Of a stretch of 64,000 bases of DNA, positions 17,478-48,054 are shown in pieces. Source of the stretch: Betaproteobacteria bacterium (GTDB lineage: Bacteria; Pseudomonadota; Gammaproteobacteria; Burkholderiales; Eutrophovitaceae). Both the position numbers and the translations under genes were made by a program. The number at the start of each line of letters is the position of its first letter. Within the stretch, counting starts at the first letter, position 1. Below the pieces are notes generated by a model. The model was given only the letters and a program-made list of their open reading frames with translations, had not been told where the DNA came from and did not search any database. The stretch spans positions 2,950,302 to 3,014,301 of the forward strand of contig CP070775.1 in the NCBI GenBank assembly GCA_020346185.1, in the 5' to 3' direction.

Positions 17478-17549
17478 GCCATGTCGCGGATGATTTTTCC
17501 GGATTAATCCCGGGATTTTTTGCTCGAAAGGCAAGGGATCTGGCTACAG

Positions 17550-18206
17550 ATGGCCACGCGCGAGAGCCTTACCGACAAAGCTTACAAGCAACTGGAGGAA
17601 ATGATTGTCACTCTCCAGCTCGAGCCAGGTGCTGTGTTGGCCGAGTTGGAGCTGGGCGAGCGTCTTCAAATAGGCCGTACCCCGATACGTGAGGCATTAC
17701 AACGGCTCGCTCGCGAGGGGCTAGTAATGATTCTGCCTCGCAAGGGTATTCTGGTGACTGAAATCAATCCTGGCAAACAACTACTCTTGATCGAAGTGCG
17801 GCGCGCATTGGAGCGGTTGATGGCCCGCACTGCTGCGATACGCAGCAGCGGCACAGAACGCAAGGAATTCCGTCGAATCGCAAAGGGCATGCAACAAGCG
17901 GCAATCAAGAACGATGACGTGAAGTTCATGCGTCACGACAGTGAATTGAATGCGTTGCTTGCAGAGGCTGCGCACAACGAATATGCAGCGAGGGCGATCC
18001 AGGCAATTCAAGGTTTGTCACGCAGGTTCTGGTACTTCCACTACAAGCAGGCGGCGGACATGCCGCTTTGCGCGCGTCTACATGCTGCACTTGCGCAGAG
18101 AATTGCAGACGGTGATGGCGCCAGCGCTGCCGAGGCGAGCGATCGCCTAGTGGACTATGTGGAGGACTTTACCCGCCTTGCGTTCAGCCCTGGTCTTGCC
18201 GCTTAG
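17550..18206 (+). CDS. GntR-family (FadR/FCD subfamily) transcriptional regulator
   Basis: Starts at MATRESLTDKAYKQLEEMIV. wHTH ELGERLQIGRTPIREALQRLAREGLV, followed by a helical FCD-like C-terminal domain. Paralog of 34658-35335. Confidence 0.9.
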   Translation: MATRESLTDKAYKQLEEMIVTLQLEPGAVLAELELGERLQIGRTPIREALQRLAREGLVMILPRKGILVTEINPGKQLLLIEVRRALERLMARTAAIRSSGTERKEFRRIAKGMQQAAIKNDDVKFMRHDSELNALLAEAAHNEYAARAIQAIQGLSRRFWYFHYKQAADMPLCARLHAALAQRIADGDGASAAEASDRLVDYVEDFTRLAFSPGLAA

Positions 18207-18293
18207 TACGTGCGTGCCACCTGGCTAGAGAAAACAAAACCGGTATTCGAGAAGGTTTTATTGTCGCAGAGCGATGAGTCCGAGGTGTATGAA

Positions 18294-18578
18294 ATGAAGC
18301 GATACAGCGGGAAGCGAACCATTGACGGCATTGTTGTTACCGTTGACGGCGCGCCCCTCGATGAAAAATTCGATATCCGGGTTTTCGATAGGAAAGGCTT
18401 CGAGTGGAGTTATGAAGGGAGCGCGCCGCGTCAGCTGGCGTTGGCGATTCTGGCGGATCATTTTGGCGACGCTGACGAGGCAATCAGTCGAGTTGAGCTT
18501 TTCATGAAATCGGTGATCGCCAATCTCGACAACGATTGGGATTTGACCACCGGCGATATCGATGCGGCGTTCGCCTGA
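18294..18578 (+). CDS. Small conserved hypothetical protein (possibly DUF6166-like)
   Basis: MKRYSGKRTIDGIVVTVDGAPL...FEWSYEGSAPRQLALAILADHFGD. Start chosen at the internal ATG. The family assignment is a weak recollection. Confidence 0.5.
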   Translation: MKRYSGKRTIDGIVVTVDGAPLDEKFDIRVFDRKGFEWSYEGSAPRQLALAILADHFGDADEAISRVELFMKSVIANLDNDWDLTTGDIDAAFA

Positions 18579-18821
18579 TTCGAACTCGTTCTTCGCTCAT
18601 GTGGAATTTCCAGACCGAAAGCTCTGAGCGCTCGCGGTGAGTGGGTGAGACTGGCAGGATTACAAACGGTGCTGTGCCCTTGAATGCGACGAGGTAGACC
18701 GCTCGAGGGAGTTATAACTGCGCTCGACGCTAAGATAGACTAGTATCGAAACATAGATGAACGGATTTTCCAACCGCTGCCGGGAAGATATCGGTGGTTT
18801 TGTAAAAGGGAAACACGCGCG

Positions 18822-19661
18822 ATGGATAACGCGATCGCTTACAAAGCAGAACAGACAGTGACCGCGCGGCTGCAATTCACTGTCAATGACGGCAAGCCAC
18901 TGATCGCCAGGGTCTTTGTGCCCGGCGCTGATCTGGACAGGCGCAGCGGCACATTTGAATGGTGCGATGTCGAGATTCACAATGGCCGCCCGCTCGCGGA
19001 CACGCTCGACCTCGACCGTGAGGGCTTCCAACTCATTCGCCATCAAAGCGCGGTCGGGAACTGGTACGACGATGCGGAAGCGCGCCGTGTCGGCTATGCG
19101 GAGACCGAGGTGCTGCTCAAGGCTATCACCGGGTGTTCCAAGGTTGTGGTCTTTGACCATACACCGCGTATCGATGACGAAGCATTGCGGATCGAGCGCG
19201 GTTTTCGGCCACCGGCCACCATCGTGCACAACGATTTCATTCCTGAATCCGCTGAACAGAGAGTACGTGACCTGTTACCCGCCGGGGAGGCAGAAGCGCG
19301 GCTCAAGAAGCGCTTTGGCTCGATCAATGTCTGGCGGCCTATCAAGGGTCCGGTCGAGACGGCACCACTGGTGGTTTGCGGCTATGGCGATATGAGCGAC
19401 GAGGACCTGATCGTTTCCGAGCGTCACTATCCTGACGGGCGTATCGGGCGAATTTACAACGTTGCCTTCAACCCGGCGCAGCGTTGGACCTACTTCCCGC
19501 ACATGATGCCGGACGAAGTGGTGCTGCTCAAATGCTACGACTCGCTCACCGACGGTGCCGCGCGCTGGACTGCTCACGGTTCGTTCCAGCCACCGGACAG
19601 ACCGGTCAACGCGGCGCCGCGCGAAAGTGTCGAACTGCGCACGATGGTGTTCTGGGACTAG
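18822..19661 (+). CDS. CmcJ/NvfI-family oxidoreductase-like protein
   Basis: 279 aa. ATIVHNDFIPESAEQRVRDLL, INVWRPIKGPVETAPLVVCGYGDMSDEDL and RESVELR fit my recollection of this family. Confidence 0.7.
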   Translation: MDNAIAYKAEQTVTARLQFTVNDGKPLIARVFVPGADLDRRSGTFEWCDVEIHNGRPLADTLDLDREGFQLIRHQSAVGNWYDDAEARRVGYAETEVLLKAITGCSKVVVFDHTPRIDDEALRIERGFRPPATIVHNDFIPESAEQRVRDLLPAGEAEARLKKRFGSINVWRPIKGPVETAPLVVCGYGDMSDEDLIVSERHYPDGRIGRIYNVAFNPAQRWTYFPHMMPDEVVLLKCYDSLTDGAARWTAHGSFQPPDRPVNAAPRESVELRTMVFWD

Positions 19662-21075: not shown

Positions 21076-21088
21076 TCAAGGAAAATCC

Positions 21089-21497
21089 ATGATCCGTAAA
21101 CTCTCAGTCTTTTTTCCTTGGACCCCTTGTCGCAGCCTCCCCGATTTGGCCCGTACCTGCGTTGACTGCTACCGTCCCGGAAGTTGTTCCCGGCAAAGGC
21201 CTGGTCGTGTTCTATCGGCTCAGAAGGATGACCGGTGCCGCCATTACGTTCAGTGTCGATCACGTCGATGGAACGCTAGGCATGCTTAGGAATGGTTCCA
21301 TGCTCTAGAAGTATAGCCAAACGGGTCAGCACACGTTCTATTCGCAGGTGCTATCAGGTGATTCCGTCACGATCAACCTGGAGCCGGGCAAAGCCTACTT
21401 CGTCCAGACTTTGGCGAGAATGGGGGTGGCTGTCGCGCGTCCCGGTTTCACTCACGTGGACGAAGCAACAGGCAGAGCAGCCGTTACCGGCTTGTAG
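21089..21497 (+). pseudogene. DUF2846-like lipoprotein gene, frameshifted with an internal stop
   Basis: Pieced across frames: MIRKLSVFF / GKGLVVFYRLRRMTGAAITFSVDHVDGTLGMLRNGSML* / GQHTFYSQVLSGDSVTINLEPGKAYFVQTLARMGVAVARPGFTHVDEATGRAAVTGL*. Confidence 0.6.
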
Positions 21498-21556
21498 AGC
21501 TATTCGCGGACCAACAAGCCGGTAGGTTCCGCCTGCCTCGGGCGCACCGAATTCTC

Positions 21557-21590
21557 AAAGGGCCTGCAAAGAAGCAGGCCCTTTGTTTTC
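21557..21590 (+). terminator. Rho-independent terminator
   Basis: AAAGGGCCTGC-AAAGAA-GCAGGCCCTTT, followed by GTTTT. Confidence 0.7.
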
Positions 21591-21794
21591 TGCTAATGCT
21601 GGGAAGTTTTTCCTTCCGGCAATCAAGAAACCGAATATCTTTCCGAATGTGGGATTTCGAATGGCAAAAATCGGAATCCTTTTCTACAGCTTTGTCGGTA
21701 CCATTTCGTCCCGGAAGAAAAGCTATCAGCGCGACGGTTATGCGAAAAACGGTAGTCGCGCGGCAGCGCTGATGCCAGCGAGGAGGGCAATCCA

Positions 21795-23063
21795 GTGAAT
21801 GAAGATCGCGTTATCGCGACCTATCTGATCGAGACACCGCATCCGCTCGAGCATGCTGCGCGGGTCATCGCCGGCGAGCAGTCGAGCGGTACCTTTGTAT
21901 CCGTTCCGGGCGAGACCAACGAACTGAAAGAGCGCTTCGGAGCGCAGGTCATCAAAGTTGATTCCCTGGGCGTGGTCGAAACGCCCAGCCTGCCGGGCAG
22001 CAAGCCACCAAAATCGACAGGCGGAAAGGTCGGGTACCGACGCGGCAGAGTGGTGATCTGCTTTCCGTTGCACAACTTCGGCCCCTCTCTGACCAGCCTG
22101 TTTTCCACGGTTGCGGGCAACCTGTACGAGCTGCAGGAGCTGTCGGGTATTCGCCTCGAAGATCTGGAACTGCCGCAGGCGTTTGCCGATCATTACGCGG
22201 GCCCCGGTTTCGGAATCGTTGGCACGCGAAAGCTGGCCGGCGTGGAGGGCCGGCCGCTGATTGGCACCATTATCAAGCCCAGCATCGGACTGGCGACCAA
22301 TGCCTTGGCGACGCTGGTGCGTGATCTGGCCACGGCGGGGCTGGATTTCATCAAGGACGACGAACTGCAGGCCGACCCCATGTACGCGCCGTTCGTGCAA
22401 CGCGTCGCCGCGGTGATGCCGGAGATCGAGAAGGCGGCGGACCGCACCGGCAAGAAGGCGATGTACGCGTTCAATATTACCGGTGACGTCGATCACATGC
22501 TGCGCAGTCACGACCTGGTGAAGAAGAGCGGTGGCACTTGCGTCATGGTGAATGTGAACGCCGTCGGTCTGGCTGCGCTCGCCTATTTGCGCCGCCACTG
22601 CGAACTGCCGATCCACGGCCACCGGGCCTGGTTCGGCGCCATTGCCCGGCATCCGCTGCTGGGCATCGGCTTCACCGCCTATCAGAAGTTATTCCGTCTG
22701 GCCGGTGTCGATCATCTGCACGTGGGCGGATTCAACAGCAAGTTCTATGAGACCAATGAAGAAGTGGGCAAGTCCATCATCGATTGCGTCACGCCGATGT
22801 TTGGTAATTACCGCGTCATGCCGGCCATCTCGTCGGCGCAATGGGCGGGGTCTGCGCCGGAAATCTACACTGCAACCAACACCGTCGATGTGATTCACCT
22901 TGCCGGCGGTGGCATCATCGCCCATCCCGGTGGAACTGCGGCCGGTGTTCGCAGCATGCAGCAGGGCTGGGAAGCGGCACTGAAAGGCGTGGCGCTGGAA
23001 GATTACGCCGAGACGCATGAAGAACTGCGCGATGCAATCGGGAAATTCGGGAGGCGTGGCTGA
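21795..23063 (+). CDS. RuBisCO large-subunit-like protein (form IV, RLP)
   Basis: 422 aa, GTG start with GAGGAGGG upstream. GTIIKPSIGL, LDFIKDDELQ (KDDE carbamate/metal motif), HGHRA, DHLHVGG, HLAGGGIIAHPGG. No small subunit, PRK or carboxysome genes nearby. Confidence 0.88.
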   Translation: MNEDRVIATYLIETPHPLEHAARVIAGEQSSGTFVSVPGETNELKERFGAQVIKVDSLGVVETPSLPGSKPPKSTGGKVGYRRGRVVICFPLHNFGPSLTSLFSTVAGNLYELQELSGIRLEDLELPQAFADHYAGPGFGIVGTRKLAGVEGRPLIGTIIKPSIGLATNALATLVRDLATAGLDFIKDDELQADPMYAPFVQRVAAVMPEIEKAADRTGKKAMYAFNITGDVDHMLRSHDLVKKSGGTCVMVNVNAVGLAALAYLRRHCELPIHGHRAWFGAIARHPLLGIGFTAYQKLFRLAGVDHLHVGGFNSKFYETNEEVGKSIIDCVTPMFGNYRVMPAISSAQWAGSAPEIYTATNTVDVIHLAGGGIIAHPGGTAAGVRSMQQGWEAALKGVALEDYAETHEELRDAIGKFGRRG

Positions 23064-24424
23064 TGGCAACCGATGAGAAACTGTTGCTCGCCTTCTATGG
23101 CGATGACTTTACCGGCTCGACTGACGCGTTGGAGGCGCTGGCGAAGTCAGGCCTGCGTACCGTCTTGTTCCTGTCCTCGCCGACACCGGAACTCATCCGC
23201 GAAAAATTCCCCGATCTTCGATGCGTCGGCGTTGCCGGGACCAGCCGTGCAATGTCTCCGGCCGAAATGGACACCGAATTCGAACCGGTACTGCGACAGT
23301 TGTGGTCGATCGGCGCACCGGTGACCCATTACAAGGTGTGCTCGACATTCGACTCGTCTCCCGAAATTGGCAGCATCGGGCATGTCGCCGACATGGTGCA
23401 CACGTCCCTGGTGCCAGGGCAGATGATCTCGATTGTTGCCGGTGCTCCGCCTTTGCGGCGTTTTACGGTATTTGGTAATCATTTTGCCGCTTACGGCGAG
23501 GAAGTTTACCGACTTGACCGGCATCCTGTCATGTCGCGTCATCCGTCCACGCCAATGCACGAGTCCGACTTGCGTGTGCATTTGTCTCATCAGACCAGGA
23601 TCAGGATCGGCTTGATGAGCGTGACCGATCTTTCCGCTGACGCTGAGAGAGTGGATGCATGTCAGAGAGCAAAGCTGGAAGAAAAGCCCGGCATGTTGCT
23701 CTACGACGCGCTGACCGACGAGCATCTGCTCACCGTAGGCAGACTGCTGTGGCAACACGGACAGCGAGCGCCGCATTTTGTCATCGGATCATCTGGCGTC
23801 GAGTATGCACTGGCGGCGCACTGGCGTGCCAGTGGCATTATCAGTGATCAGCGCGCCGAGTTCGAGCCACTAAAGCCGGTCGAGCAAATGCTGGCTGTGT
23901 CGGGCAGCGCCTCGCCGATGACCGCGCAGCAGATCGAGTGGGCGGGCAACAACGGCTTCGACTGCATCCGCATACCGACTGAGAAACTGGCGCAGCCTGA
24001 CACGGCAGAACAAGCGCAGCAGCAACTCGTTGCACATGGTCTTGAGTCGCTCTCTGCCGGCAGCAGTGTGCTGCTCTACTCTGCAGCCGGTCCGGATGAT
24101 CCGAGTATCCACGCCACGCGTGAACGACTGGATAAGAGCGGGGGCAGGACTGCCCGCGTGCTTGGAACCGCGATGGGAAACATTGCGCGCGAATTGCTGA
24201 AGCGAAGTGGGTTGCGGCGTGTTGTTATCGCCGGCGGAGACACGTCGAGCTACGCCACCCAGGAACTTGGGCTCTACGCGCTGGAGATGCTGGCAGAGCT
24301 CACGCCCGGCGCGCCGCTGTGCCGTGCCTATTCAGATGACCCGCAGTTCGACGGTCTCGAGATCGCGCTGAAGGGCGGCCAGATGGGCAAAGTCGATTAT
24401 TTCGGAATGGTGCGGGGGCAGTAG
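23063..24424 (+). CDS. Four-carbon acid-sugar kinase family protein (DUF1537; OtnK/DtnK/OiaK-like)
   Basis: 453 aa. N-terminal LLLAFYGDDFTGSTDALEALAKSGLRTVLF and C-terminal VVIAGGDTSSYA are typical of DUF1537 kinases. The start overlaps the RLP stop (TGATG). Confidence 0.88.
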   Translation: MATDEKLLLAFYGDDFTGSTDALEALAKSGLRTVLFLSSPTPELIREKFPDLRCVGVAGTSRAMSPAEMDTEFEPVLRQLWSIGAPVTHYKVCSTFDSSPEIGSIGHVADMVHTSLVPGQMISIVAGAPPLRRFTVFGNHFAAYGEEVYRLDRHPVMSRHPSTPMHESDLRVHLSHQTRIRIGLMSVTDLSADAERVDACQRAKLEEKPGMLLYDALTDEHLLTVGRLLWQHGQRAPHFVIGSSGVEYALAAHWRASGIISDQRAEFEPLKPVEQMLAVSGSASPMTAQQIEWAGNNGFDCIRIPTEKLAQPDTAEQAQQQLVAHGLESLSAGSSVLLYSAAGPDDPSIHATRERLDKSGGRTARVLGTAMGNIARELLKRSGLRRVVIAGGDTSSYATQELGLYALEMLAELTPGAPLCRAYSDDPQFDGLEIALKGGQMGKVDYFGMVRGQ

Positions 24425-24505
24425 ACAGGCCTTCCCCCCACGCTTTGTAACAACCGTCGCTGGCCACAAGCCGGACGTGCGGATCAATTACTGTGGAGAC
24501 AACAC

Positions 24506-25336
24506 ATGACAAGAGTAGCGATTATCGGAGCAGGCGGAAAAATGGGTTATCGGGTGTCCTCCAACTTGAAGGATGCACACTATGACGTGAGCCATGTTGA
24601 AGTCAGCGAAGCCGGGCGCGAGCGGCTCAAGGAACTGGGCATCACTTGTGTCGATACTGATACCGCGCTAGCCGATGCGGACTTCGTGATCCTCACCATT
24701 CCCGACAACATGATCGAGAAAGTCACCAAGCAGTTGGTTGACAAGTTCAAAAAGGGCGCAACCCTGATCGCATTGGACGCGGCGGCGCCGTTCGCAGGAC
24801 ATTTGCCGGCGCGTAAGGACCTGACGATTTTCGTTGCCCATCCTTGTCATCCGCCGATCTTCAACGACGAGACCGATCTCGAAGCCAAGCGCGATTACTT
24901 TGGCGGCATCAAAGCCAAGCAGGCAATTGTCTGCGCGTTGTTGCGTGGAGATGAGAAGAACTATGCGGTGGCTGAAGATGTCGCCAAGCGCATGTATGCA
25001 CCGGTGATGCGTTCGCATCGCGCCACCGTCGAGCAAATGGCGATGCTCGAGCCAGCGCTGTCGGAGACGGTTTGCGCAACTTGCCTGACGGTGATCCGTG
25101 AAGCAACCGACGAGGCAGTCAAGCGCGGCGTGCCGGCGGAAGCGGCGCGCGATTTCATTCTCGGGCACCTCAATGTCGAATTGGCGATTCTGTTCGATCA
25201 GCTGCCGGGCGTTCGGATGTCGGACGCAGCCAACAAGGCGGTGGAAGAGGCGAAGAAAAAGATATTTGCGCCGGACTGGAGGAAGGTGTTCGACCGCGAA
25301 GAAATCGCCGCAAACATCCAGGCGATCACGAGCTGA
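24506..25336 (+). CDS. NAD(P)-binding dehydrogenase (ProC/prephenate-dehydrogenase-like Rossmann N-domain with helical C-domain)
   Basis: MTRVAIIGAGGKMGYRVSSNL Rossmann motif. 276 aa. Resembles proteins annotated as phosphogluconate-dehydrogenase-C-terminal-domain proteins. Confidence 0.7.
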   Translation: MTRVAIIGAGGKMGYRVSSNLKDAHYDVSHVEVSEAGRERLKELGITCVDTDTALADADFVILTIPDNMIEKVTKQLVDKFKKGATLIALDAAAPFAGHLPARKDLTIFVAHPCHPPIFNDETDLEAKRDYFGGIKAKQAIVCALLRGDEKNYAVAEDVAKRMYAPVMRSHRATVEQMAMLEPALSETVCATCLTVIREATDEAVKRGVPAEAARDFILGHLNVELAILFDQLPGVRMSDAANKAVEEAKKKIFAPDWRKVFDREEIAANIQAITS

Positions 25337-25475
25337 CGAACCGGTAGCCGCAGCATGCGTATCAGCTGCCAGTAACAGCGTCAGGTAAGCGGTCAATTCA
25401 GCAGACTTCATTTTTATACCAGTCGATTCTTGGTGCCGGGCGGCGTAAGGCTATGCTCGCTGACGAGGACAGGAT

Positions 25476-25871
25476 ATGCTCAAAAAAACAGTGGAACAGG
25501 GTACAGGCGGCAAAGTCGTCCTGATGGATTCAATCACGAAGGTGAGCGCCGATGACGAGGGTGCGGTTGTCGTGTGTGCCTCACATGGCGGCACCAGCTC
25601 GGGAGAGTTCGCTCTCGAGGTACCGCTCAAACTGGTGGTGTTCAATGACGCCGGCGGGGGGAAGGACGATGCCGGGATTGCGGCGCTGGCAATGTTACAG
25701 GGGCGAGGTGTCGCCGCGGCAACAGTCGCGCACACCAGCGGCCGTATTGGCGATTCGCTTGACATGTGGAAGAACGGCGTTCTGTCGCATGTCAATGCTG
25801 CCGCTCGTGAGCTCGGTTTGGCTGATGGCGACAAGGTGTGCGATAGACTCACTAAACTCGTGAGTGGATAG
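25476..25871 (+). CDS. Conserved hypothetical protein (131 aa), member of the acid-sugar cluster
   Basis: Protein-like composition. Motif CASHGGTSSGEF...VFNDAGGGKDDAGIAAL...VAHTSGRIGD. No family recognised. Confidence 0.55.
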   Translation: MLKKTVEQGTGGKVVLMDSITKVSADDEGAVVVCASHGGTSSGEFALEVPLKLVVFNDAGGGKDDAGIAALAMLQGRGVAAATVAHTSGRIGDSLDMWKNGVLSHVNAAARELGLADGDKVCDRLTKLVSG

Positions 25872-25904
25872 CATTGGAAAGCCTGCTGGAAAAGGAAGAC
25901 GAAG

Positions 25905-27611
25905 GTGGCCGTTGATCCAAGACACAAGAGCCGTGCGCTGCTGGAGGGGCCTGATCGTGCGGTAGCGCGCTCGATGATGAAGGCGGTCGGTTTCAGCGAC
26001 GAAGATCTGTCGCGGCCGCAAATTGGCGTCGCTCACTGCTGGATCGGCACCATGCCATGCAACTGGAACCACCGGGAACTGGCGCAGCGCGTGATGGAGG
26101 GTATACGCGCCGCTGGCGGCACACCGATCGAAGTCAACACGGTGGCCATCAACGATGCCATCACTACCGGCACGGAAGGTATGAAGACGTCGCTGGTCAG
26201 TCGTGAAGTCATTGCTGACTCTGTGGAGCTGGTGGCGTGGGGCCACATGTTCGACGGTATCGTCACCATTTCCGGTTGCGACAAGACGATTCCGGCGATG
26301 GCAATGGTGCTTGGGCGGCTCGACATACCTGGCGTCACCTTGTACGGCGGGTCGATTCGTTCAGGTGCGTGCGTCAAACCGAACAAGGTATTCGGTGACC
26401 GGAAGCTCACAGTGCAGGATGCCTACGAAGCGCTTGGTGCGTTCAACGCAGGCAGGATCAGCGAGGACGAATTCAAGGACGTTGAGGACCACGCCTGCCC
26501 GGGTGCCGGCGCCTGTGGCGGACAGTTCACGGCCAATACCATGGCCACCGCTTACGAGATGCTCGGTATTTCGCCGATGGGATGGAACGACGTACCGGCG
26601 CTGGACACAAGGAAACTCGACGTCGCGTTTGAAACCGGTAGGTTGGTCATGGAGTTGGTGACGAAAGGTGTGACGCCGCGCTCGCTGGTGACCAGGCGCA
26701 GCTTCGAGAATGCGATCACCGGCGTCATGGCAACTGGCGGCTCAACCAATGCCGTTTTGCACCTGCTCGCAACGGCACACGATTTCGGCGTGCCATTGGA
26801 GCTGGAAGCCTTTGATCACATTTCCCGCAAGACACCGGTGCTGGCGGACATGCGGCCGTGGGGTACCTATACCGCGCCGGAAATGTTTGAGGCCGGCGGC
26901 ATGCCGGTGGTGGGCAAGCGCCTGATTGAGGCGGGTCTGCTGCATGGCGCAGAAAAGACGGTCACTGGACAGACGCTGGCACAGGAGATCGAAGGCGCAG
27001 TCGAACCTGACGGCCAGGATGTCATCAAGCCGTTGTCGAATTCACTGAAGTCAGAAGGTGGTCTCGCCATATTGCGGGGTAATCTGGCACCAGGTGGTTG
27101 CGTCATCAAAGTCTCGGGTCAGACCAAAAAGCTGCATCGAGGGCCGGCACGCGTGTTCGAAAACGAGGAAGACGCGTTTCTCGCGATTAAGGAAGGGCGT
27201 ATCCAGCCGAACGATGTGATGGTGTTGCGCAACGAAGGTCCGAAAGGCGGACCGGGCATGCGGGAGATGCAACTGGTCACGGGTGCCTTGCAAGGGTACG
27301 GTCTGGGGGAGACGGTGGCACTGATGACCGACGGCCGGTTCTCGGGCGCATCGCGTGGCTTTGTCATCGGCCATATCGTTCCCGAGGCGGCAGAGCGTGG
27401 CCCGATCGCGGTGTTGCGCGATGGTGACGCGATCACGATCGACGTGGAAAACCGCAAACTCGACGTTGAGCTGAGCGAAGAGCAGCTGCGCGAGCGGCTG
27501 GCGAAATGGGTCGCACCGCCACCGCGTTACACAAAGGGTGTGCTCGCGAAGTATGCGCGCCTTGTTGCCGATGCATCGAAGGGCGCGGTGACGGACCTAC
27601 AAAAATTCTGA
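25905..27611 (+). CDS. IlvD/Edd-family dehydratase (dihydroxy-acid / sugar-acid dehydratase)
   Basis: 568 aa, GTG start. PQIGVAHCWIGTMPCNWNHREL, SGCDKTIPAMAM, PGAGACGGQFTANTM, MTDGRFSGASRGFVIGH. Confidence 0.93.
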   Translation: MAVDPRHKSRALLEGPDRAVARSMMKAVGFSDEDLSRPQIGVAHCWIGTMPCNWNHRELAQRVMEGIRAAGGTPIEVNTVAINDAITTGTEGMKTSLVSREVIADSVELVAWGHMFDGIVTISGCDKTIPAMAMVLGRLDIPGVTLYGGSIRSGACVKPNKVFGDRKLTVQDAYEALGAFNAGRISEDEFKDVEDHACPGAGACGGQFTANTMATAYEMLGISPMGWNDVPALDTRKLDVAFETGRLVMELVTKGVTPRSLVTRRSFENAITGVMATGGSTNAVLHLLATAHDFGVPLELEAFDHISRKTPVLADMRPWGTYTAPEMFEAGGMPVVGKRLIEAGLLHGAEKTVTGQTLAQEIEGAVEPDGQDVIKPLSNSLKSEGGLAILRGNLAPGGCVIKVSGQTKKLHRGPARVFENEEDAFLAIKEGRIQPNDVMVLRNEGPKGGPGMREMQLVTGALQGYGLGETVALMTDGRFSGASRGFVIGHIVPEAAERGPIAVLRDGDAITIDVENRKLDVELSEEQLRERLAKWVAPPPRYTKGVLAKYARLVADASKGAVTDLQKF

Positions 27612-27647
27612 GCTCAACCAGCCGAAAAGAATCAGGGAGGCACAGAT

Positions 27648-28430
27648 ATGCGACTCAAGGACCGCGTGGCGATTGTCACCGGGGGCGCGCAGGGGATCGG
27701 CAAGGCGATCGGTACGGCTTTTATCGGCGAGGGGGCACGACTAGTTATTGGCGACGTGAATGGTGATCTGGCAGCGAAAACGGCGGCTGAACTCAATCAA
27801 GGAGGTCGCAAAGCCAGATCGATTCGCATTGATGTCGCCGAAACCACCGGGGGCCAGCAACTGGTCGATTTTTGTCTTTCCGAATTCGGCCGCGTCGACA
27901 TTCTTGTCAACAACGCCGGCATCGGTGCCAATGTACGCGCGCTCGAATGTACGTTGGAGCAGTGGGAACGGGTGATCCGCATCAACCTGACCGGTGCGTT
28001 TCTGTGTTCGCAGGCGGCCGGCCGGGAAATGGTCAAGCAGGGCTACGGCAAGATCATCAATATCTGTTCTCTGTCGGGGCAGCGCGGCGGCATCGGCCGC
28101 GCGCCCTATGGCGCGGCGAAAGCCGGTTTGGAACTGTTGACCAAAGTGATGGCGGTGGAGCTGGCGGAGCAGGGCGTCAATGTCAATGACATTGTCCCCG
28201 GTCCGATCGCCACGGATGTCGGCCGTGCCATGCATGACCCGGCGACGGTCGAAGCCTATGAATTCCTGGTGCCGCAAAGAAGATATGGCGTTCCGGAAGA
28301 GATCGCCAACGCCGCAGTGTTTCTGGCGTCAGCCGAGAGTGATTACGTCAACGGGCATTCATTAAGTGTAGATGGTGGATTTGGCTCGGCGGGGCTGATG
28401 TATCCTTTACCAAATTCACCCCATCGATAG
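27648..28430 (+). CDS. SDR-family oxidoreductase
   Basis: VAIVTGGAQGIGKAI, NNAG, S...YGAAK catalytic motif. GGGAGG SD. Confidence 0.9.
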   Translation: MRLKDRVAIVTGGAQGIGKAIGTAFIGEGARLVIGDVNGDLAAKTAAELNQGGRKARSIRIDVAETTGGQQLVDFCLSEFGRVDILVNNAGIGANVRALECTLEQWERVIRINLTGAFLCSQAAGREMVKQGYGKIINICSLSGQRGGIGRAPYGAAKAGLELLTKVMAVELAEQGVNVNDIVPGPIATDVGRAMHDPATVEAYEFLVPQRRYGVPEEIANAAVFLASAESDYVNGHSLSVDGGFGSAGLMYPLPNSPHR

Positions 28431-28462
28431 ACCCAGGCCATAAATAATTTCTCAACAGCCTG

Positions 28463-29221
28463 TTACATGGCCATGCCACCGTCGACGTTGTATACGTGCC
28501 CGGTGACAAACGACGCATCGTCCGAGGCAAGAAAAGCAATGACCGCAGCGGTCTCTTCCGGCCTGCCCGGGCGTCCGAGCGGTGTCATGGCCATCACCCG
28601 GTCCAGTGTTCCTTCGGGCAGCCGGTCGAGCTGGCGCTGGGCGAAGTCAGTCAGGGTGAGCGTCGGGGAGACCGCGTTGACGCGAATGCCGGACTTGGCA
28701 AATTCGCGCGCCAGCGCTTTGGTCAGCGCAATCAACGCACCCTTGGAAGTGGAGTAGGCCGCGGTACCGAGCAGGCCGCCGCCACGCTGTCCCGCCACCG
28801 AACTGACGTTGACGATACTGCCGCTTGCTTGCTGCAGCATTGTGGGTATGACCGCCTGACAACACAGCCACGCGCCGGTGGTATTGATGCGCATGACTCG
28901 CTCGAATTCCTGTATACCGATTTCCAGGAAGGGTTTGGAACTCTCGGTCCCGGCGTTGTTTACCAGGATATCGATGCGTCCCAGCTCATCGAGCGTCTTG
29001 GCGGCCATGTTGCCGACGCTGGCTTCATCGGCAATGTCCACTTCGACCGGCAGCGCGTCAACGCCTGCTGAGTGAAGTCGATTTGCCGTTGCTTCGGCTG
29101 CGTCTCCGCGAACGTCGGCAATAACCACGCGCATGCCCTTGTAAGCAAGGGCGTGCGCGGTGGCCTCACCAATGCCGCCAGCAGCCCCGGTGATGATTGC
29201 GACTTTCGATTCGCTAGTCAT
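28463..29221 (-). CDS. SDR-family oxidoreductase (convergent with 27648-28430)
   Basis: VAIITGAAGGIGEAT, NNAG, SS...YSTSK. Confidence 0.9.
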   Translation of the reverse strand: MTSESKVAIITGAAGGIGEATAHALAYKGMRVVIADVRGDAAEATANRLHSAGVDALPVEVDIADEASVGNMAAKTLDELGRIDILVNNAGTESSKPFLEIGIQEFERVMRINTTGAWLCCQAVIPTMLQQASGSIVNVSSVAGQRGGGLLGTAAYSTSKGALIALTKALAREFAKSGIRVNAVSPTLTLTDFAQRQLDRLPEGTLDRVMAMTPLGRPGRPEETAAVIAFLASDDASFVTGHVYNVDGGMAM

Positions 29222-29479
29222 GGTACCTGTCAGCCGCGTTTGCAGACGGTGAATGGGCTGGATTCCTCTTTTGCAAAGTTTGCCGTTTGGTCGACGGCAT
29301 TTACAGGGTCAGGCGATAACCAGCCGGGACCGTACCCGAGAATACCACCGTGATCTAAGAATGTTCGGGCTCGACAGAGCGAAAGTGTATGCTTGCCGCA
29401 CCCTTGTAGTGGTCTTCTTGTCAACCGGGCGAGAATCAGTGTAGGTTCGACCTGAACGGCAACGTACTTGGGAGATGGC

Positions 29480-31189
29480 ATGGACGCGAAGTTTTGGAAT
29501 TTTGGAGCAGTTATTCGGATCGCGACAATCAATGCGACGCTGGCCGTTTCAATTGTCTTCACCGGACCTTCGATAGCGGCCAACGAGATTGTCCACGACG
29601 CCGAGTATTACATTCTGCAGCAACAACACGGCAAAGCCTGGAGAGCCGAGGATAAAGCCATCGACCAGCGACTGGCCGACTTTCGCAAGAAGAACGGCGG
29701 CAAGCCGCCGAACGTTTTCTACATCCTGATCGATGATATTGGCTTCGGTGATCTCGGCAGCGACTCGCTCAATGCCATACGGGGTTACAAGACGCCGTCA
29801 ATCAACAAGTTCGCCCGCGAAGGCATGCGCCTGGCACGTATGTACACGGAGCCTTCCTGCACGCCGACGCGCGTGGCTTTTATGACAGGGCGCCAACCGC
29901 ACCGAAACGGCATGGGTAATACGTCGGTCGATATTTCCGGCTTCGGTCTCGCCGGCAAGGAAGTCACCCTGGCCGAGATACTCTCGGAAAAGGGCTACAA
30001 CACTGCGCATATCGGGAAGTGGCACATGGGTGATATCAGGGAGTCGTGGCCCAATTTCCAGGGTTTTGACTTCGCGGCCTTTCCGATCCATCAGCAAGGC
30101 CAGTTGACGATCTTCAATGACGAAGCGGCTAATGAAGAAGTCAGCGTTGGCATCGGCGGCAACAACTACGACGACCGCTACACCCTCGATGGATGGTTGC
30201 GCACCGATGCGTCGAGCATGGTGACGGGTGTGGAGGGCTACCGTAACAAACCCGTGCGAGAGGTGTACATGAAGCCCGGCGAGCGCTGGACCGAGGCCAA
30301 ATACGAAGCGATGAACCGGCGCTACCAGCAACAGACCTTGGAGCAGCTTCGCAAGCTGGCCAAGCAGGGTAAGCCCTTCTTCTTGCAGTATTGGCCTTTG
30401 TACCCGTTGACAGGACCCCGCACTGCCTATGAGGAATACACCACACCCAATGGCGGCACCTACGTGGAAAAGATGAAGCTTCTGGACCAGTGGATCGGTG
30501 AGTTGCTGGCCGAGATGGAGAAGTTGAATGTGGCCGATAACACGCTTGTCGTCATCATGGGTGACAACGGCCACTTCACCAAGTATTCGCCTCAATCCGG
30601 CTATACGCCGATGATCTTTCGCGGCGGTAAAGGGTCAACTACCGAAGGCGGCGTGCGCGTGGATGCGTTCGTGCGGTGGCCAGGCATGATCGAGTCCGAT
30701 ACCGTTGTCGGCGATATCATTCATGTGGCCGACCTGTTCACGACCATTGCCCGCCTCGGCGGTGCCACGGAAGGAATCCCGGGAGACCGCATCATCGACG
30801 GCATCGACCAGACCGCCTTGCTGCTCAAGGGTGACTCCCACGGTCGCCGCGATTACGTATTCATCTACAACATCGACAAACTGGAAGCAGTGGTCAAGGA
30901 GCAATACAAGCTGGCCATTCCCGGCGGCAATATCGACAACGCGATTCTCGCTGACTTCTATGACCTGTTCCGCGATCCGCGGGAAAGATATCCGGTCTCG
31001 ACGGAAATTGGCGCCTGGGGCGGCGCCAAATTCGTTCGCATGATCCAGCGTCACATGAAACGCAAAGCCAAGTACCCGAGCGAGGGCCCCGCAATTGGAA
31101 TGCCCTATGAAGGCATTGAAAACCTGCGCCCGGAATCGAAAGCTGCAGTCCGGGAATTTCTGTTCATGATGAAGTCACCTGAAATGTAG
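29480..31189 (+). CDS. Cys-type arylsulfatase family protein (exported)
   Basis: Signal-like N-terminus. PNVFYILIDDIGFGDLG, formylglycine motif CTPTRVAFMTGR, GKWHMGD. The track starts at TTG 29468; I prefer ATG 29480. Confidence 0.88.
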   Translation: MDAKFWNFGAVIRIATINATLAVSIVFTGPSIAANEIVHDAEYYILQQQHGKAWRAEDKAIDQRLADFRKKNGGKPPNVFYILIDDIGFGDLGSDSLNAIRGYKTPSINKFAREGMRLARMYTEPSCTPTRVAFMTGRQPHRNGMGNTSVDISGFGLAGKEVTLAEILSEKGYNTAHIGKWHMGDIRESWPNFQGFDFAAFPIHQQGQLTIFNDEAANEEVSVGIGGNNYDDRYTLDGWLRTDASSMVTGVEGYRNKPVREVYMKPGERWTEAKYEAMNRRYQQQTLEQLRKLAKQGKPFFLQYWPLYPLTGPRTAYEEYTTPNGGTYVEKMKLLDQWIGELLAEMEKLNVADNTLVVIMGDNGHFTKYSPQSGYTPMIFRGGKGSTTEGGVRVDAFVRWPGMIESDTVVGDIIHVADLFTTIARLGGATEGIPGDRIIDGIDQTALLLKGDSHGRRDYVFIYNIDKLEAVVKEQYKLAIPGGNIDNAILADFYDLFRDPRERYPVSTEIGAWGGAKFVRMIQRHMKRKAKYPSEGPAIGMPYEGIENLRPESKAAVREFLFMMKSPEM

Positions 31190-34657: not shown

Positions 34658-35335
34658 ATGAATCACGTGTCTACGAATCCTATATCGCTTCAGCAATCGA
34701 TCGAGTCGAAATCGGAACAAGCGTACCGGATGCTGGAAGAAATGATCGTAACCATGGATCTCCAGCCCGGGGCGCTGTTATCCGAGTCGCGGCTGGTCGA
34801 AATGCTCGGCCTCGGACGCACGCCGATTCGGGAAGCCCTGCAGCGCCTGGCTACGGAGGGCCTGGTCGAAATCATGGCTCGTCGCGGCATTCGGGTTACC
34901 GACATCAACATCCGCCAGCAGTTGCGCCTGCTCGAAGTCAGGCGTGCACTCGAACAACTGAACATCCGCTTGTCGGCGCGTCGTGCCAACCACACCATTA
35001 AAGAGCAGTTTGCCCGTATCGCTGATGGTATGAGTGCGGCCGCACGTGACAACGACTACAAGTCGTTTCTTCATCTGGATAGAGACCTCAACGAATTGAT
35101 CGCGGTTGCCGCAGACAATGAATATTCAGCTCAGATGCTGCAGAAAATCCATGGCCTGTCACGACGGTTCTGGCACAAGCACTATCTGCAGGTGGATGAC
35201 CTCGCCGAGGTCGCCGGTTTGCATGCAGCGATTGCGCAAGCCATCGCTGATGGCGACGAAGAAGCTGCGGCAGCGGCATCGGTGGCACACATGGATTACA
35301 TCCAGTCCTTCACATTGTCGACCCTGGACCTGTAA
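34658..35335 (+). CDS. GntR-family (FadR/FCD) transcriptional regulator, first gene of the corrinoid methyltransferase operon
   Basis: SEQAYRMLEEMIVTMDLQPGALLSESRLVEMLGLGRTPIREALQRLATEGLV plus an FCD-like C-terminus. The stop lies 3 nt before the next ATG. Confidence 0.9.
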   Translation: MNHVSTNPISLQQSIESKSEQAYRMLEEMIVTMDLQPGALLSESRLVEMLGLGRTPIREALQRLATEGLVEIMARRGIRVTDINIRQQLRLLEVRRALEQLNIRLSARRANHTIKEQFARIADGMSAAARDNDYKSFLHLDRDLNELIAVAADNEYSAQMLQKIHGLSRRFWHKHYLQVDDLAEVAGLHAAIAQAIADGDEEAAAAASVAHMDYIQSFTLSTLDL

Positions 35336-36067: not shown

Positions 36068-37117
36068 ATGTCCACTCAAGACATCGCACCCATGACGAGC
36101 CGCGAACGAGTGCTTGCAGCCCTGAGACGCGAACCGGTTGACCGTACGCCGGTATGCAATCCGACTTCGGTGGCGACAGTTGAACTGATGGATCTGGTGG
36201 ACGCGCCGTTCCCGGACGCGAATCGCAAAGCGGAGTTGATGGCGCGACTGGCGGCAACGAGTTACACCGAACTCGGTTTCGACACCGTCATGCCCGTGTT
36301 CACCATCATCCAGGAATCGTCGGCGCTGGGCTGCAAGATTCAGTGGGAAAAGAAAGACAACTGGCCGACGGTGAGAATGACCGAGCCGATCTGGTCAGAG
36401 CCGGAGGACATCAAGATTCCTGCAGATTTCATGGACCATCCTGATACGCGCTGCGTCATCGATGCGATCAAGATTCTGCGCAAGGAATTGGGTGACGACG
36501 TTGCCATCATCGGCAAGACGATGGGGCCATGGTCGCAGGGCTATCACTGTTTCGGTGTCGAACGCTTCCTGCTCATGTCACGGGACGATCCGGACAAGAC
36601 AAAGCGCTGCCTCGACAGACTGAAAGACCTTACCGTCGCGTACGGTATCGCCCAGTTTGAAGCCGGTGCTGATGCCGTGACGCTTCCGGACCACGCAACA
36701 GGCGACCTGGTCAGCGGCCAGTACTACGATCGCTACTTGCTGGATTTGCACACCGAGTTTGTCGAGCGCATCCCCGGGCCAATCATTTTGCACATTTGCG
36801 GGCGGACGGTGGATCGAATGGACTCTATCGCACGCACGGGGATGTCGGCTTTCCACTACGACTCGAAGAATGGAGCACAGGAGTCAATGGACGTAGTCAA
36901 GGATCGCATTGCTCTGGTCGGCAATATCAATAACCCGCAAACCTTGTTCGCACGCGGGCCAGAGGAAGTTCGGAAAGAGGTCTACGAGAACCTGGACGCC
37001 GGTATTCACATGGTTGGTCCCGAGTGCGCTATTCCCCTGCAGACTTCGATCGAGAACCTGAAAGAGATTCCGCTGGCGGTGAAGGATTGGCACAAACAGC
37101 ACGCGGCTAAGCACTAA
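36068..37117 (+). CDS. Uroporphyrinogen-decarboxylase-fold methyltransferase (MtaA/MtbA/CmuA-N-like, corrinoid-dependent)
   Basis: 349 aa, AAGGAGG SD. MTSRERVLAALRREPVDRTPVCNPTS...SSALGCKIQW...ILHICG are typical of MtaA-like URO-D family methyltransferases. Confidence 0.8.
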   Translation: MSTQDIAPMTSRERVLAALRREPVDRTPVCNPTSVATVELMDLVDAPFPDANRKAELMARLAATSYTELGFDTVMPVFTIIQESSALGCKIQWEKKDNWPTVRMTEPIWSEPEDIKIPADFMDHPDTRCVIDAIKILRKELGDDVAIIGKTMGPWSQGYHCFGVERFLLMSRDDPDKTKRCLDRLKDLTVAYGIAQFEAGADAVTLPDHATGDLVSGQYYDRYLLDLHTEFVERIPGPIILHICGRTVDRMDSIARTGMSAFHYDSKNGAQESMDVVKDRIALVGNINNPQTLFARGPEEVRKEVYENLDAGIHMVGPECAIPLQTSIENLKEIPLAVKDWHKQHAAKH

Positions 37118-37147
37118 ACGAGAAGACACGCAACGAGAGGACTGGCC

Positions 37148-37909
37148 ATGGCGCAACTTGCCGACGTCACCAACGAATTCATTCGCGAGGAGATTGAAGA
37201 ATACATCCAGCGTCCCGATGAGATCGAGCGCATCGTGGAATTGTTCGCCCGAGTCAGCCCAAAGATGCAAGACATCGCAGCCGCAATCATCGAAGGTGAG
37301 GACGATGTCGCCGACGAGCTGACCCAACAAGCACTCGCCGACGGTGTCGACGCACTGGAAATCATGGACGATGGCCTGATTGCCGGCATGAGCATCGTCG
37401 GTATCAAGTTTCGCGAAGCATACATATTCGTGCCGGAAGTGCTCGCTTGCGCCCGGGCGATGAAGGCGGGCATGGCGTATATCGAGCCGATACTCTCGGC
37501 TGCCGGCGTCGAATCACAAGGGACCGTGATCATGGGTACCGTCAAAGGCGATCTGCACGACATCGGCAAGAATCTTTGCATAATGATGCTGCGCGGCGCC
37601 GGCTTTACAGTGCATGACCTCGGTGTCGATGTTGGTGAAGATACCTTTATCGACGCTGTGGAGGAACACGGAGCACCCATTCTCGGAATGTCAGCCCTGC
37701 TCACCACGACCATGCCCAACATGGGCAAGACCATCGAAGCATTCATCGATGCGGATCTGCGCGAAGACGTGAAGATCATGGTCGGCGGTGCACCGGTTAC
37801 CCAGGAATTTGCCGATGACATGGGTGCCGATGGTTATGGCAAGGACGCGCTTTCCTGCGTCGCGCTGGCCAAGTCGCTGATGCAAGAGGTCAAGGCCGAA
37901 AGCGCCTGA
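37148..37909 (+). CDS. Cobalamin-binding corrinoid protein (B12-binding_2 helical cap + B12-binding Rossmann domain)
   Basis: 253 aa. D-x-H-x-x-G motif GDLHDIGKNL (nt 37550-37567), ILGMSALLTTTMP, VKIMVGGAPV. Confidence 0.9.
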   Translation: MAQLADVTNEFIREEIEEYIQRPDEIERIVELFARVSPKMQDIAAAIIEGEDDVADELTQQALADGVDALEIMDDGLIAGMSIVGIKFREAYIFVPEVLACARAMKAGMAYIEPILSAAGVESQGTVIMGTVKGDLHDIGKNLCIMMLRGAGFTVHDLGVDVGEDTFIDAVEEHGAPILGMSALLTTTMPNMGKTIEAFIDADLREDVKIMVGGAPVTQEFADDMGADGYGKDALSCVALAKSLMQEVKAESA

Positions 37910-37938
37910 GCTTAAGTGACTTTGAGTTTCAGTGTCGT

Positions 37939-39855: not shown

Positions 39856-39861
39856 CCAGGA

Positions 39862-45697: not shown

Positions 45698-46196
45698 GGG
45701 CCGAAATTCGACGTCCTAGTCGCGCAAGCTGCTGGCCATGGCGTCGAGCGACTCGAAACGGTTCGCCAACAACATGGGCGTAGCGCTAGGATGGCTGGGC
45801 ATCAGGGGCCAAAGGTTGGGTAAAACTGTAAGTTTTTTGATACTCGCATGAACTTCCGGTTGGGACAATACGGACTCTTCGAGTAAAGTGAGGAGAACTA
45901 CGTGGCAGCATCGACGAATGGCATGCCCGTGCTTTCATTCACGGTAGTAGATCGCAGCGCATTGTCGTTCTCCTGGAGAAAGTGCTTTACAGTCGAATTC
46001 GGGAATCATGTGCAGCCCCGGGGGGCGGTTCCTCTTGCTCATGACACGAAATGCCGGTCGGTGGTGGCTGTAATGACACGCTCGGCGTTTCTGGGACTCA
46101 AATGGCAAAGATGGGCGAGTGCCATGTTTCTTAGTTATGGAAAGTTCAGTTGAATCCGTATTGGATTTCAAACGGGAAAACAAAGGGGAAAGAAAT

Positions 46197-47942: not shown

Positions 47943-48054
47943 GCTGCGCCACGGAAGCCGTTGCCCTGTTTTGACGCGACGGCTTCTGGCGATTCGGGCC
48001 AGAAGGAATCGCCACGGGGGAAAGGTCATCTACCATTTTGTGAAAAGGCATCGT

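Follow-up and report, generated by a model that had tools for sequence, protein, structure and literature searches.

The closest described relative of the locus analysed here is the catabolism of D-apionate, which, according to the summaries of Carter et al. 2018 in PMC6302742 and PMC12994016, proceeds through ApnO, the kinase OiaK, and a RuBisCO-like protein (RLP), the latter being either the decarboxylase OiaX or the transcarboxylase/hydrolase OiaT. ApnO, OiaK, and OiaX constitute the D-apionate degradation genes, and ApnO couples oxidation of the C2 hydroxyl group with migration of the hydroxymethyl group (JBC 2026, PMC12994016). The routes for L-threonate and D-erythronate follow the same logic, i.e. 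a dehydrogenase, an optional isomerase, a DUF1537 kinase, and loss of the carboxyl group; the enzymes are LtnD/DenD, OtnI, OtnK, and OtnC (Zhang et al. 2016). In a bypass of this scheme, Ltn3D, a short-chain dehydrogenase/reductase (SDR), supplies the 3-oxo acid directly (Watanabe et al. 2026, PMC12994016). We compared these systems with a gene cluster that is headed by an RLP gene and lies within a 64-kb stretch of DNA from a Betaproteobacteria bacterium (contig CP070775.1, positions 2,950,302 to 3,014,301). This whole stretch is called “the window” in the following, and coordinates refer to its first nucleotide.

The RLP gene (21795-23063, plus strand, 422 aa) and the gene for a DUF1537 kinase (23063-24424, plus strand, 453 aa) are translationally coupled. 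The stop codon of the former and the ATG of the latter have one base in common in the overlap TGATG (...GGCTGATGGCA...), as had been claimed in an original prediction made from the sequence of the window, and the 1-nt overlap was also found in homologous loci. Five further genes follow, four of them on the same strand, and all seven open reading frames (ORFs) of the prediction were present at the predicted positions and belong to the families named there. We propose, with about even confidence, that the genes form an operon for the catabolism of D-apionate or a close analogue, with an OiaT-like step catalysed by the RLP.

The dehydrogenase gene (24506-25336, plus strand, 276 aa) links the cluster to apionate. 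The protein has a PGDH_C domain and a KARI_N/NAD_binding_2-like N-terminus, and it aligns with PDB entry 5T57 over residues 3-275 with 352.7 bits and 59% identity, including the common blocks HPCHP, FNDETD, and DYFGG. Entry 5T57 represents the D-apionate oxidoisomerase ApnO (2020 preprint on Rossmann-fold oxidoreductases), and the label ApnO is used here for EC 1.1.1.421, PDB 5T57. The ApnO reaction is that of a ketol-acid reductoisomerase (KARI) in reverse and thus fits the KARI-like N-terminus. A full-length homologue of 5T57 refutes the earlier view that the dehydrogenase is foreign to apionate routes, which were thought to use enzymes of the PdxA or Gfo/Idh/MocA types.

For comparison, we inspected two clusters with an ApnO homologue elsewhere. 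The oiaX operon of Rhizobium etli p42f, named by PGAP, comprises NanR, oiaX, a DUF1537 kinase, a TIM-like isomerase, an RpiB-like isomerase, a PGDH_C protein, an ABC transporter, and Gfo/Idh/MocA. The PGDH_C protein encoded there shares 72.5% identity with 5T57 and 59% with the window dehydrogenase. The ApnO encoded on a Cupriavidus pinatubonensis plasmid is 91% identical to 5T57, and the four components common to this cluster and the window are 55% (SDR), 55% (RLP), 46% (kinase), and 59% (ApnO) identical. ApnO-clade proteins share 70-91% identity among themselves and 59% with the window dehydrogenase, while other PGDH_C proteins, from loci without an RLP, share 55-60% with it. An ApnO-type gene beside an RLP and a DUF1537 kinase was found in the window, in about 19 related loci, and in R. 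etli, Cupriavidus, and Shinella. Because the dehydrogenase is 59% identical to 5T57 and the R. etli oiaX cluster contains the same three families, the core of the window cluster can be assigned to the known ApnO/OiaK/RLP module. The original prediction had assumed a different route, but oxidation, phosphorylation, and an RLP step are those of the known apionate scheme, and the same trio occurs in R. etli p42f.

The kinase has the two-domain SBD_N + NBD_C architecture (PF07005, E = 7e-55; PF17042, E = 5e-36), and its relatives in the PDB are 5DMH, 1YZY, and 3DQQ. With the OiaK model NF042436 it reaches 498 bits, below the cut-off of 700 bits, and with the model for 3-oxo-tetronate kinase (OtnK) 213 bits. 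However, the R. etli kinase encoded beside a genuine OiaX reaches only 473 bits with the same OiaK model. The cut-off therefore excludes probable OiaKs and cannot rule out an OiaK function of the window kinase, which fits the model as well as the genuine OiaX partner does. The original prediction had made the novelty of the route depend on the RLP and the kinase lying outside characterized clusters. Both do lie outside the NCBI thresholds for OiaX and OiaK, but a kinase beside a genuine OiaX fails the OiaK threshold as well.

The RLP is of form IV, i.e. it has the RuBisCO fold according to Pfam (RuBisCO_large, E = 5e-67; RuBisCO_large_N was also matched), has lost some catalytic residues, and is not a carboxylating RuBisCO. 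It scores below the cut-off in every RuBisCO equivalog model of NCBIfam. Retained are K175, K201/D203/E204 (in LDFIKDDE), H294, R295, H327, N123, E60, and the Lys in a shortened loop 6; changes are K177 to S and H298 to F, and the G380/G381 region reads SSAQW. The named NCBIfam model with the best score is OiaX (454 bits, cut-off 700), with which the R. etli OiaX, used as a control, yields 784 bits, and ten other members of the clade from Paraburkholderia, Paenibacillus, Cohnella, and others yield 444-490 bits. The identity is 44% to OiaX and 41-45% across the proteins named OiaX by PGAP. The R. etli OiaX has D, G, and Q at the aligned positions of E60, N123, and H327. On sequence grounds, the RLP is not an OiaX.

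The alternative known reaction, OiaT-like cleavage to 3-phosphoglycerate, is the most likely one. This reading is based on the RuBisCO residues that are kept, on missing tetrulose-phosphate isomerases, and on the naming by JGI, which labels four proteins 78-79% identical to the RLP as 3-oxoisoapionate-4-phosphate transcarboxylase/hydrolase (oiaT). Homologues of the TIM-like and RpiB-like isomerases were found neither in the 64-kb window nor in about 95 related loci, and their absence fits a product that enters glycolysis directly. More generally, the RLP is proposed to decarboxylate a phosphorylated alpha-hydroxy-beta-keto acid sugar or to cleave one of its C-C bonds. The names OiaT and OiaK were absent from the annotated plasmids, on which proteins named OiaX by PGAP did occur, and none of the homologues retrieved with the Cupriavidus RLP as query was named OiaT either. 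The nearest solved structure is that of a Burkholderia fungorum RLP (3NWR, 398 bits), which has the motifs KPx, DFIKDDE, HxHR, and GKF of loop 6 in common with the window RLP but belongs to another RLP clade. Paraburkholderia fungorum also encodes an orthologue 68% identical to the window RLP, in a different context (L050).

To estimate how constant the gene arrangement is, one genome per species was scanned, which yielded 80 loci that were compared by tblastn and with a conservation-weighted ORF caller; in addition to the 64-kb window, flanks of 10 kb were covered in the other genomes. Relatives of the RLP number in the thousands, and the best 120 are 76-99% identical to it and stem mainly from Burkholderiales metagenome genomes. 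The adjacency of RLP and kinase genes was seen at nearly all loci with the flank present. The block of RLP, kinase, dehydrogenase, 131-aa ORF, and IlvD genes was found in no fewer than 13 independent metagenome genomes of Burkholderiales, in some of them in a rearranged order. Among the Burkholderiales-type loci (RLP identity of at least 69%), the dehydrogenase and 131-aa genes occur together in about 19 loci; in 13 of these an IlvD gene is also present, and it is never found without both of them. About five loci have an ApnO homologue and the 131-aa gene without IlvD. In L034, L041, and L064, the linkage of the dehydrogenase, 131-aa, and IlvD genes to the RLP-kinase pair has outlasted a rearrangement of the gene order. 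The arrangement is thus well beyond chance, and the conserved synteny rules out a chance juxtaposition of the genes.

Three variants illustrate the range. The window, L005, and L006 have the order RLP, kinase, dehydrogenase, 131-aa ORF, IlvD, SDR1, and the convergent SDR2. In L002 and L088, a divergent LysR gene (followed in L088 only by a HAD hydrolase gene) precedes RLP, kinase, dehydrogenase, 131-aa ORF, IlvD, TRAP, BKACE, SDR, and an RraA-like gene. In L090-L093, the order is RLP, kinase, TRAP, BKACE, SDR, and a convergent SDR2. These variants have one frame, and the dehydrogenase/131-aa/IlvD block can therefore be viewed as a cassette that was inserted 3′ of an RLP-kinase pair which itself stays constant.

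A further gene of the cluster encodes the IlvD/Edd dehydratase (25905-27611, plus strand, 568 aa; the homologues have 565 aa, so that the true start may be a few codons downstream). The original prediction had placed IlvD enzymes outside the described acid-sugar routes, and indeed none turned up in the literature searched or in the NCBIfam naming. The highest scores were obtained with dihydroxy-acid dehydratases (DHADs), i.e. 565 bits with 6NTE (Synechocystis), 542 bits with 6OVT (M. tuberculosis), and about 510 bits with 5ZE4 and related entries (Arabidopsis). For comparison, the L-arabinonate dehydratase entries 5J83/5J84 yielded 335 bits and the IlvD/Edd-family dehydratase 5OYN, which we take to be the Caulobacter D-xylonate dehydratase, 216 bits. 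The enzyme falls in the DHAD clade, ruling out a pentonate or hexonate dehydratase, and it lies just above the ilvD cut-offs of NCBIfam (656 versus 618 and 755 versus 644 bits; TIGR00110 / PRK00911). The motifs PCN, CDK, CGG, and FSG are all present, with the three Cys ligands, the Asp and Lys of CDK, and the Ser of FSG intact. Beside the motifs, three changes are found in 13 of 13 cluster copies and in none of four solved DHADs: the M following CGG is replaced by Q, ISMG by ITTG, and FSGG(T/S)x by FSGA(S/T)R (with H for R in one of the 13 copies).

D-apionate is 2,3-dihydroxyisovalerate (DHIV) in which each of the two methyl groups carries a hydroxyl group, and the configuration at C2 is the same in both compounds. 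In view of this likeness, a DHAD paralogue whose pocket is more polar is a sensible candidate for an apionate-type dehydratase. The IlvD gene was always located within an RLP cluster, also in the rearranged loci. Dehydration before phosphorylation, as had originally been suggested, is disfavoured, because in about half of the loci closely related RLP-kinase pairs (74-78% identity) are not accompanied by IlvD.

The 131-aa ORF (25476-25871, plus strand) has no match in Pfam, NCBIfam, or the sequences of the PDB, even when its profile was used, and DUF1805 was not matched at E <= 5. The AlphaFold model is of high confidence (pLDDT 87.8) and has its best PDB fold match in the DUF1805-like 1QW2 (E = 0.08, TM 0.42-0.52). 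A profile search against 1.8 billion representative proteins identified 1,219 related clusters (50% identity). Most relatives, with a length of about 275 aa, consist of two domains in tandem, whereas the window protein has a single domain; one of these relatives, P0252, lies just above the threshold of DUF1805 (PF08827; 30.8 versus 29.5 bits), and the COG name given to homologues by JGI is YunC/DUF1805. Taken together, the 131-aa protein is distantly DUF1805/YunC-like.

Two-domain relatives are located 7-10 nt 3′ of PGDH_C or SDR genes in unrelated loci. In the case of the PGDH_C genes, these are two loci without an RLP, and two-domain relatives are also found between two SDR genes upstream of another RLP-kinase pair. 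In L101 (1586-4399) and L102 (274-2792), two-domain relatives were observed between a transketolase-like gene and a gene for an acetolactate-synthase-like thiamine pyrophosphate (TPP) enzyme. P0350 combines such a relative and an E1 (TPP) dehydrogenase domain in one fusion protein. The TPP-enzyme neighbours and this fusion connect the orphan family with the chemistry of acyloins and alpha-keto acids, and the family accompanies enzymes by which keto and acyloin acids are formed or processed. By analogy with OtnI, we guess that the 131-aa protein could be a 2-oxo/3-oxo isomerase, or else a lactonase.

The last two genes encode classical SDRs, SDR1 (27648-28430, plus strand) and SDR2 (28463-29221, minus strand), which is convergent. 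SDR1 has orthologues with 74-90% identity in about ten related loci, is 55% identical to the SDR of the Cupriavidus ApnO/RLP cluster, which is annotated as ‘glucose 1-dehydrogenase’, and shows a sub-threshold likeness to the models of KduD and gluconate 5-dehydrogenase. For SDR2, orthologues with 61-88% identity occur together with the RLP-kinase pair in about 16 loci, some of which do not contain the dehydrogenase, 131-aa, and IlvD genes. No informative close structure was found for SDR2.

From these data we infer the following pathway. The host is an uncultured Burkholderiales-type betaproteobacterium, and the substrate would be a (2R)-2,3-dihydroxy acid sugar whose C3 is tertiary. The ApnO-family dehydrogenase would oxidize the C2 hydroxyl group and shift a substituent, as a KARI in reverse, yielding a 2-hydroxy-3-oxo acid with a terminal CH2OH beside the ketone. 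The DUF1537 kinase would phosphorylate this CH2OH, and the RLP, via its intact carbamate-Mg2+ site, would enolize and cleave the resulting beta-keto acid phosphate, most likely in an OiaT-like transcarboxylation and hydrolysis to 3-phosphoglycerate and a small acid such as glycolate. Of the remaining proteins, the 131-aa protein may work with the dehydrogenase step, the DHAD-clade dehydratase would probably convert DHIV-like diol acids to 2-keto-3-deoxy acids, and keto/hydroxy intermediates are probably provided or withdrawn by the two SDRs.

Compared with the apionate system, the window has the same three adjacent families, and GntR/FCD (NanR-like) or LysR regulators as well as acid transporters are present in its sister loci. 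In contrast, the window lacks the tetrulose-phosphate isomerases, the Gfo/Idh/MocA apiose dehydrogenase, and the lactonase, and it adds the DHAD-clade dehydratase, the DUF1805-like protein, and the two SDRs, which form an accessory module that no described route accounts for. In the literature searched, nothing of relevance beyond the papers cited here was retrieved on OiaT/OiaK, on DUF1805/YunC, or on an RLP combined with DUF1537 and dihydroxy-acid dehydratase. All three core proteins have only generic names at NCBI. Compared with the threonate and erythronate routes, the dehydrogenase and 131-aa protein would parallel LtnD and OtnI, but cleavage is by the class-II-aldolase-type OtnC there, whereas the window has an RLP and a PGDH_C/ApnO dehydrogenase. 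The KARI-like and DHAD-clade genes of the window are two genes apart and recall the KARI and DHAD of branched-chain amino-acid synthesis; however, the context is catabolic, the KARI-like enzyme is expected to act in the oxidative direction, and no ilv genes are nearby. A tentative extension is that the ApnO-like, 131-aa, and DHAD-like proteins form a ‘hydroxylated branched-chain’ module that mirrors the KARI/DHAD steps of valine synthesis on sugar acids, with the 131-aa protein as a new enzyme family and the RLP clade with a new reaction or substrate. In such a module, the 131-aa family would act on alpha-hydroxy-beta-keto or 2-oxo-3-hydroxy acids beside PGDH_C, SDR, and TPP enzymes.

Several observations weigh against an apionate operon with an OiaT-like RLP. 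The RLP and the kinase are both far below the cut-offs of the OiaX and OiaK models, and with identities of only 44% to OiaX and 55% to the Cupriavidus RLP, the window RLP may quite possibly act on a different substrate. The OiaT assignment stands on residue retention, the missing isomerases, and the naming by JGI itself. True ApnO clusters contain neither the 131-aa protein nor IlvD, and an ApnO homologue is lacking in the vicinity of about 13 pairs closely related to the RLP-kinase pair of the window, so that another enzyme, probably an SDR, must make the keto acid there. An apiose dehydrogenase, a lactonase, a transporter, and a dedicated regulator are all missing from the genes adjoining the window cluster. 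The main rival is that the same enzyme logic serves unbranched C4-C6 acid sugars such as D-erythronate and L-threonate; the ApnO homologue, alone or with an OtnI-like 131-aa protein, would then make the 3-oxo acid, the kinase would phosphorylate it, and the RLP would replace the decarboxylase OtnC and yield dihydroxyacetone phosphate or a ketose phosphate. We regard this rival as unlikely, both for the substrate class and for this distribution of roles. It agrees with the many related RLP-kinase pairs that are partnered by SDRs and a TRAP transporter alone, with the match of the kinase to the 3-oxo-tetronate kinase model, and with identities of just 44-59% between ApnO, kinase, and RLP of the window and the apionate enzymes. 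Furthermore, ApnO acting on D-erythronate would equal a 3-dehydrogenase, and SDRs are known to feed DUF1537 kinases with 3-oxo acids of C4-C6 sugars (JBC 2026, PMC12994016). On the other hand, the OiaK model fits the kinase far better than the OtnK model (498 versus 213 bits), the dehydrogenase family has so far been tied to apionate alone, and the dehydratase belongs to the DHAD clade, the natural substrates of which have a tertiary C3 like apionate, and not to the pentonate/hexonate clades.

A plain OiaX-type decarboxylation by the RLP, yielding L-erythrulose 1-phosphate or an analogue, appears rather improbable. Although OiaX is the top named NCBIfam model and the isomerases could be encoded elsewhere, given that the window or 10-kb flanks alone were in view per genome, the score of 454 bits is far from the 784 bits of a true OiaX, the OiaX-specific replacements at E60, N123, and H327 are missing, and R. 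etli-type TIM-like/RpiB-like genes occur in none of about 95 loci. The route of the original prediction, in which IlvD dehydrates the sugar acid to a 2-keto-3-deoxy acid, an SDR generates a HOCH2-C(=O)- terminus by oxidation, and phosphorylation and RLP cleavage then lead, for example, to pyruvate and 3-phosphoglycerate, is feasible on paper. It would make use of IlvD, SDR1, and SDR2, which are all conserved with the cluster, and of the KduD/gluconate 5-dehydrogenase likeness of SDR1. We nevertheless consider it improbable as a whole and also in its final steps, since closely related (74-78%) RLP-kinase pairs do without IlvD, IlvD never occurs without the ApnO homologue and the 131-aa gene, the ApnO homologue is immediately 3′ of the kinase gene, and IlvD is not a member of the sugar-acid dehydratase clades. 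Least probable of all, both as a function and in its rationale, is that IlvD is a true DHAD for branched-chain amino acids, retained as an analogue-insensitive spare because the housekeeping enzymes could be poisoned by apionate and 3-oxo-isoapionate as mimics of DHIV and acetolactate. Such a role has a counterpart in the fungal aspterric acid cluster, in which a DHAD paralogue is the self-resistance gene, and IlvD passes both NCBIfam DHAD cut-offs and has intact catalytic residues. However, the margin over the equivalog cut-off is slim, the invariant polar changes by the cluster ligand and the catalytic Ser suggest an altered substrate pocket, and the roughly five loci with an ApnO homologue and the 131-aa gene manage without IlvD. 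An apionate-type operon with an OiaT-like RLP is our preferred interpretation.

The boundaries of the proposed operon were also analyzed. A strong terminator-like hairpin (21556-21585, plus strand, a 12-bp stem followed by a T run) is predicted to close the upstream unit and to set the 5′ boundary of the cluster. The gaps on the plus strand after the kinase gene are, in order, 81, 139, 33, and 36 nt, and none of the intergenic gaps across 21795-28430 contains a terminator-like hairpin. The 139-nt gap between the dehydrogenase and 131-aa genes is unconserved between loci except for the ribosome-binding site. An alignment of the upstream regions of the window, L005, L006, L007, L008, and L001 revealed blocks at 21633-21706 (plus strand) that may be the promoter/operator of the operon, i.e. 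GAAAnATTTTC ... AGAAAA-N10-TTTTCT (an inverted repeat) ... TTGCCGGTAACAT, together with a TTGCCGGTAA(C/T)AT block. No Rfam family was matched in the 64-kb window.

No regulator gene lies next to the cluster in the window, and the sister loci differ, with a divergent LysR gene in L002 and L088 and a NanR-like GntR gene in L034 and L041. The GntR gene noted earlier at a distance of 3.6 kb upstream does exist (GntR/FCD, 17520-18206), but a role as regulator of the cluster is unsupported, and it heads a unit of its own with DUF6166, CmcJ/NvfI, and patatin genes. In this unit (17520-19661), the GntR/FCD regulator, the DUF6166 protein, and the CmcJ/NvfI-family oxidoreductase (267 bits, cut-off 80) are encoded upstream of a patatin-like lipase. 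The stretch of 480 nt that separates the patatin gene from the terminator (21076-21555) contains only short ORFs of 48 and 49 aa in different frames, e.g. ...LVVFYRLRRMTGAAITFSVDHVDG... and ...GDSVTINLEPGKAYFVQTLARMG..., and looks like a frameshifted small gene or a pseudogene.

The lack of an adjacent transporter, as stated in the original prediction, also holds within the window. In sister loci, however, TRAP transporters are present and imply the uptake of an acid. Many of these loci, among them L002 (15797-20696), L088 (15770-20669), and L090 (12843-18482), encode a fused TRAP DctQM, DctP, a BKACE (DUF849) beta-keto-acid cleavage enzyme, and an SDR; the combination of SDR and BKACE resembles, as we presume, the oxidative deoxyribonate route. 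As called, the BKACE ORF of L002 has a twin-arginine-like N-terminal signal (RRRFLKS...AAVA), which would be odd for an acetyl-CoA-dependent enzyme.

More distant RLP-kinase pairs, 57-66% identical to that of the window, are found in other contexts in Paenibacillus and Cohnella (L048-L083). Some of these loci are rich in glycoside hydrolases, with GH2- and GH42-type galactosidases and rhamnosidases (families judged by eye), and there the pair is located behind a protein of about 577 aa (cluster c6) and an Asp/Glu-racemase-like protein (by eye). Others contain GntR, a Zn-dependent alcohol dehydrogenase, TRAP, and a class II aldolase (by eye). As far as gene content can indicate, these contexts are consistent with a plant-cell-wall sugar as the origin of the substrate.

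Further genes of the window deserve mention. A set at 36068-40914, with a GntR/FCD gene upstream (34658-35335), encodes a URO-D/MtaA-like methyltransferase, a B12-binding protein, a RACo reductive activator, and a pterin-binding methyltransferase, and it looks like a corrinoid methyl-transfer system of the O-demethylase or methylamine type. An APH-family kinase gene (40962-41984) overlaps an enolase-family gene (41981-43273) by 4 nt, 12 kb from the RLP cluster; in Cupriavidus, eno, pyk, and ppc are near the ApnO/RLP cluster. Two sulfatase-family genes and one type I phosphodiesterase-family gene are located at 29468-31189, 46119-47942, and 47764-49728. The latter two ORFs overlap by about 180 nt as called, so that one of the start codons is probably wrong.

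Reactions are known for only a handful of RLPs, and every addition to them illustrates how the active site of RuBisCO has been reused. A large, generically annotated RLP clade, which has hundreds of members in metagenomes as well as relatives in Paraburkholderia, Paenibacillus, and Cohnella, is now placed beside the apionate machinery. In addition, the cluster points to a DHAD paralogue that may dehydrate a dihydroxyisovalerate-like sugar acid, and to an orphan family that is consistently found with dehydrogenases making keto acid sugars. If confirmed, these assignments would extend the map of how branched sugars of plant cell walls are recycled by soil and sediment bacteria, and they would improve the annotation of thousands of metagenomic ‘RuBisCO large chain’ calls.

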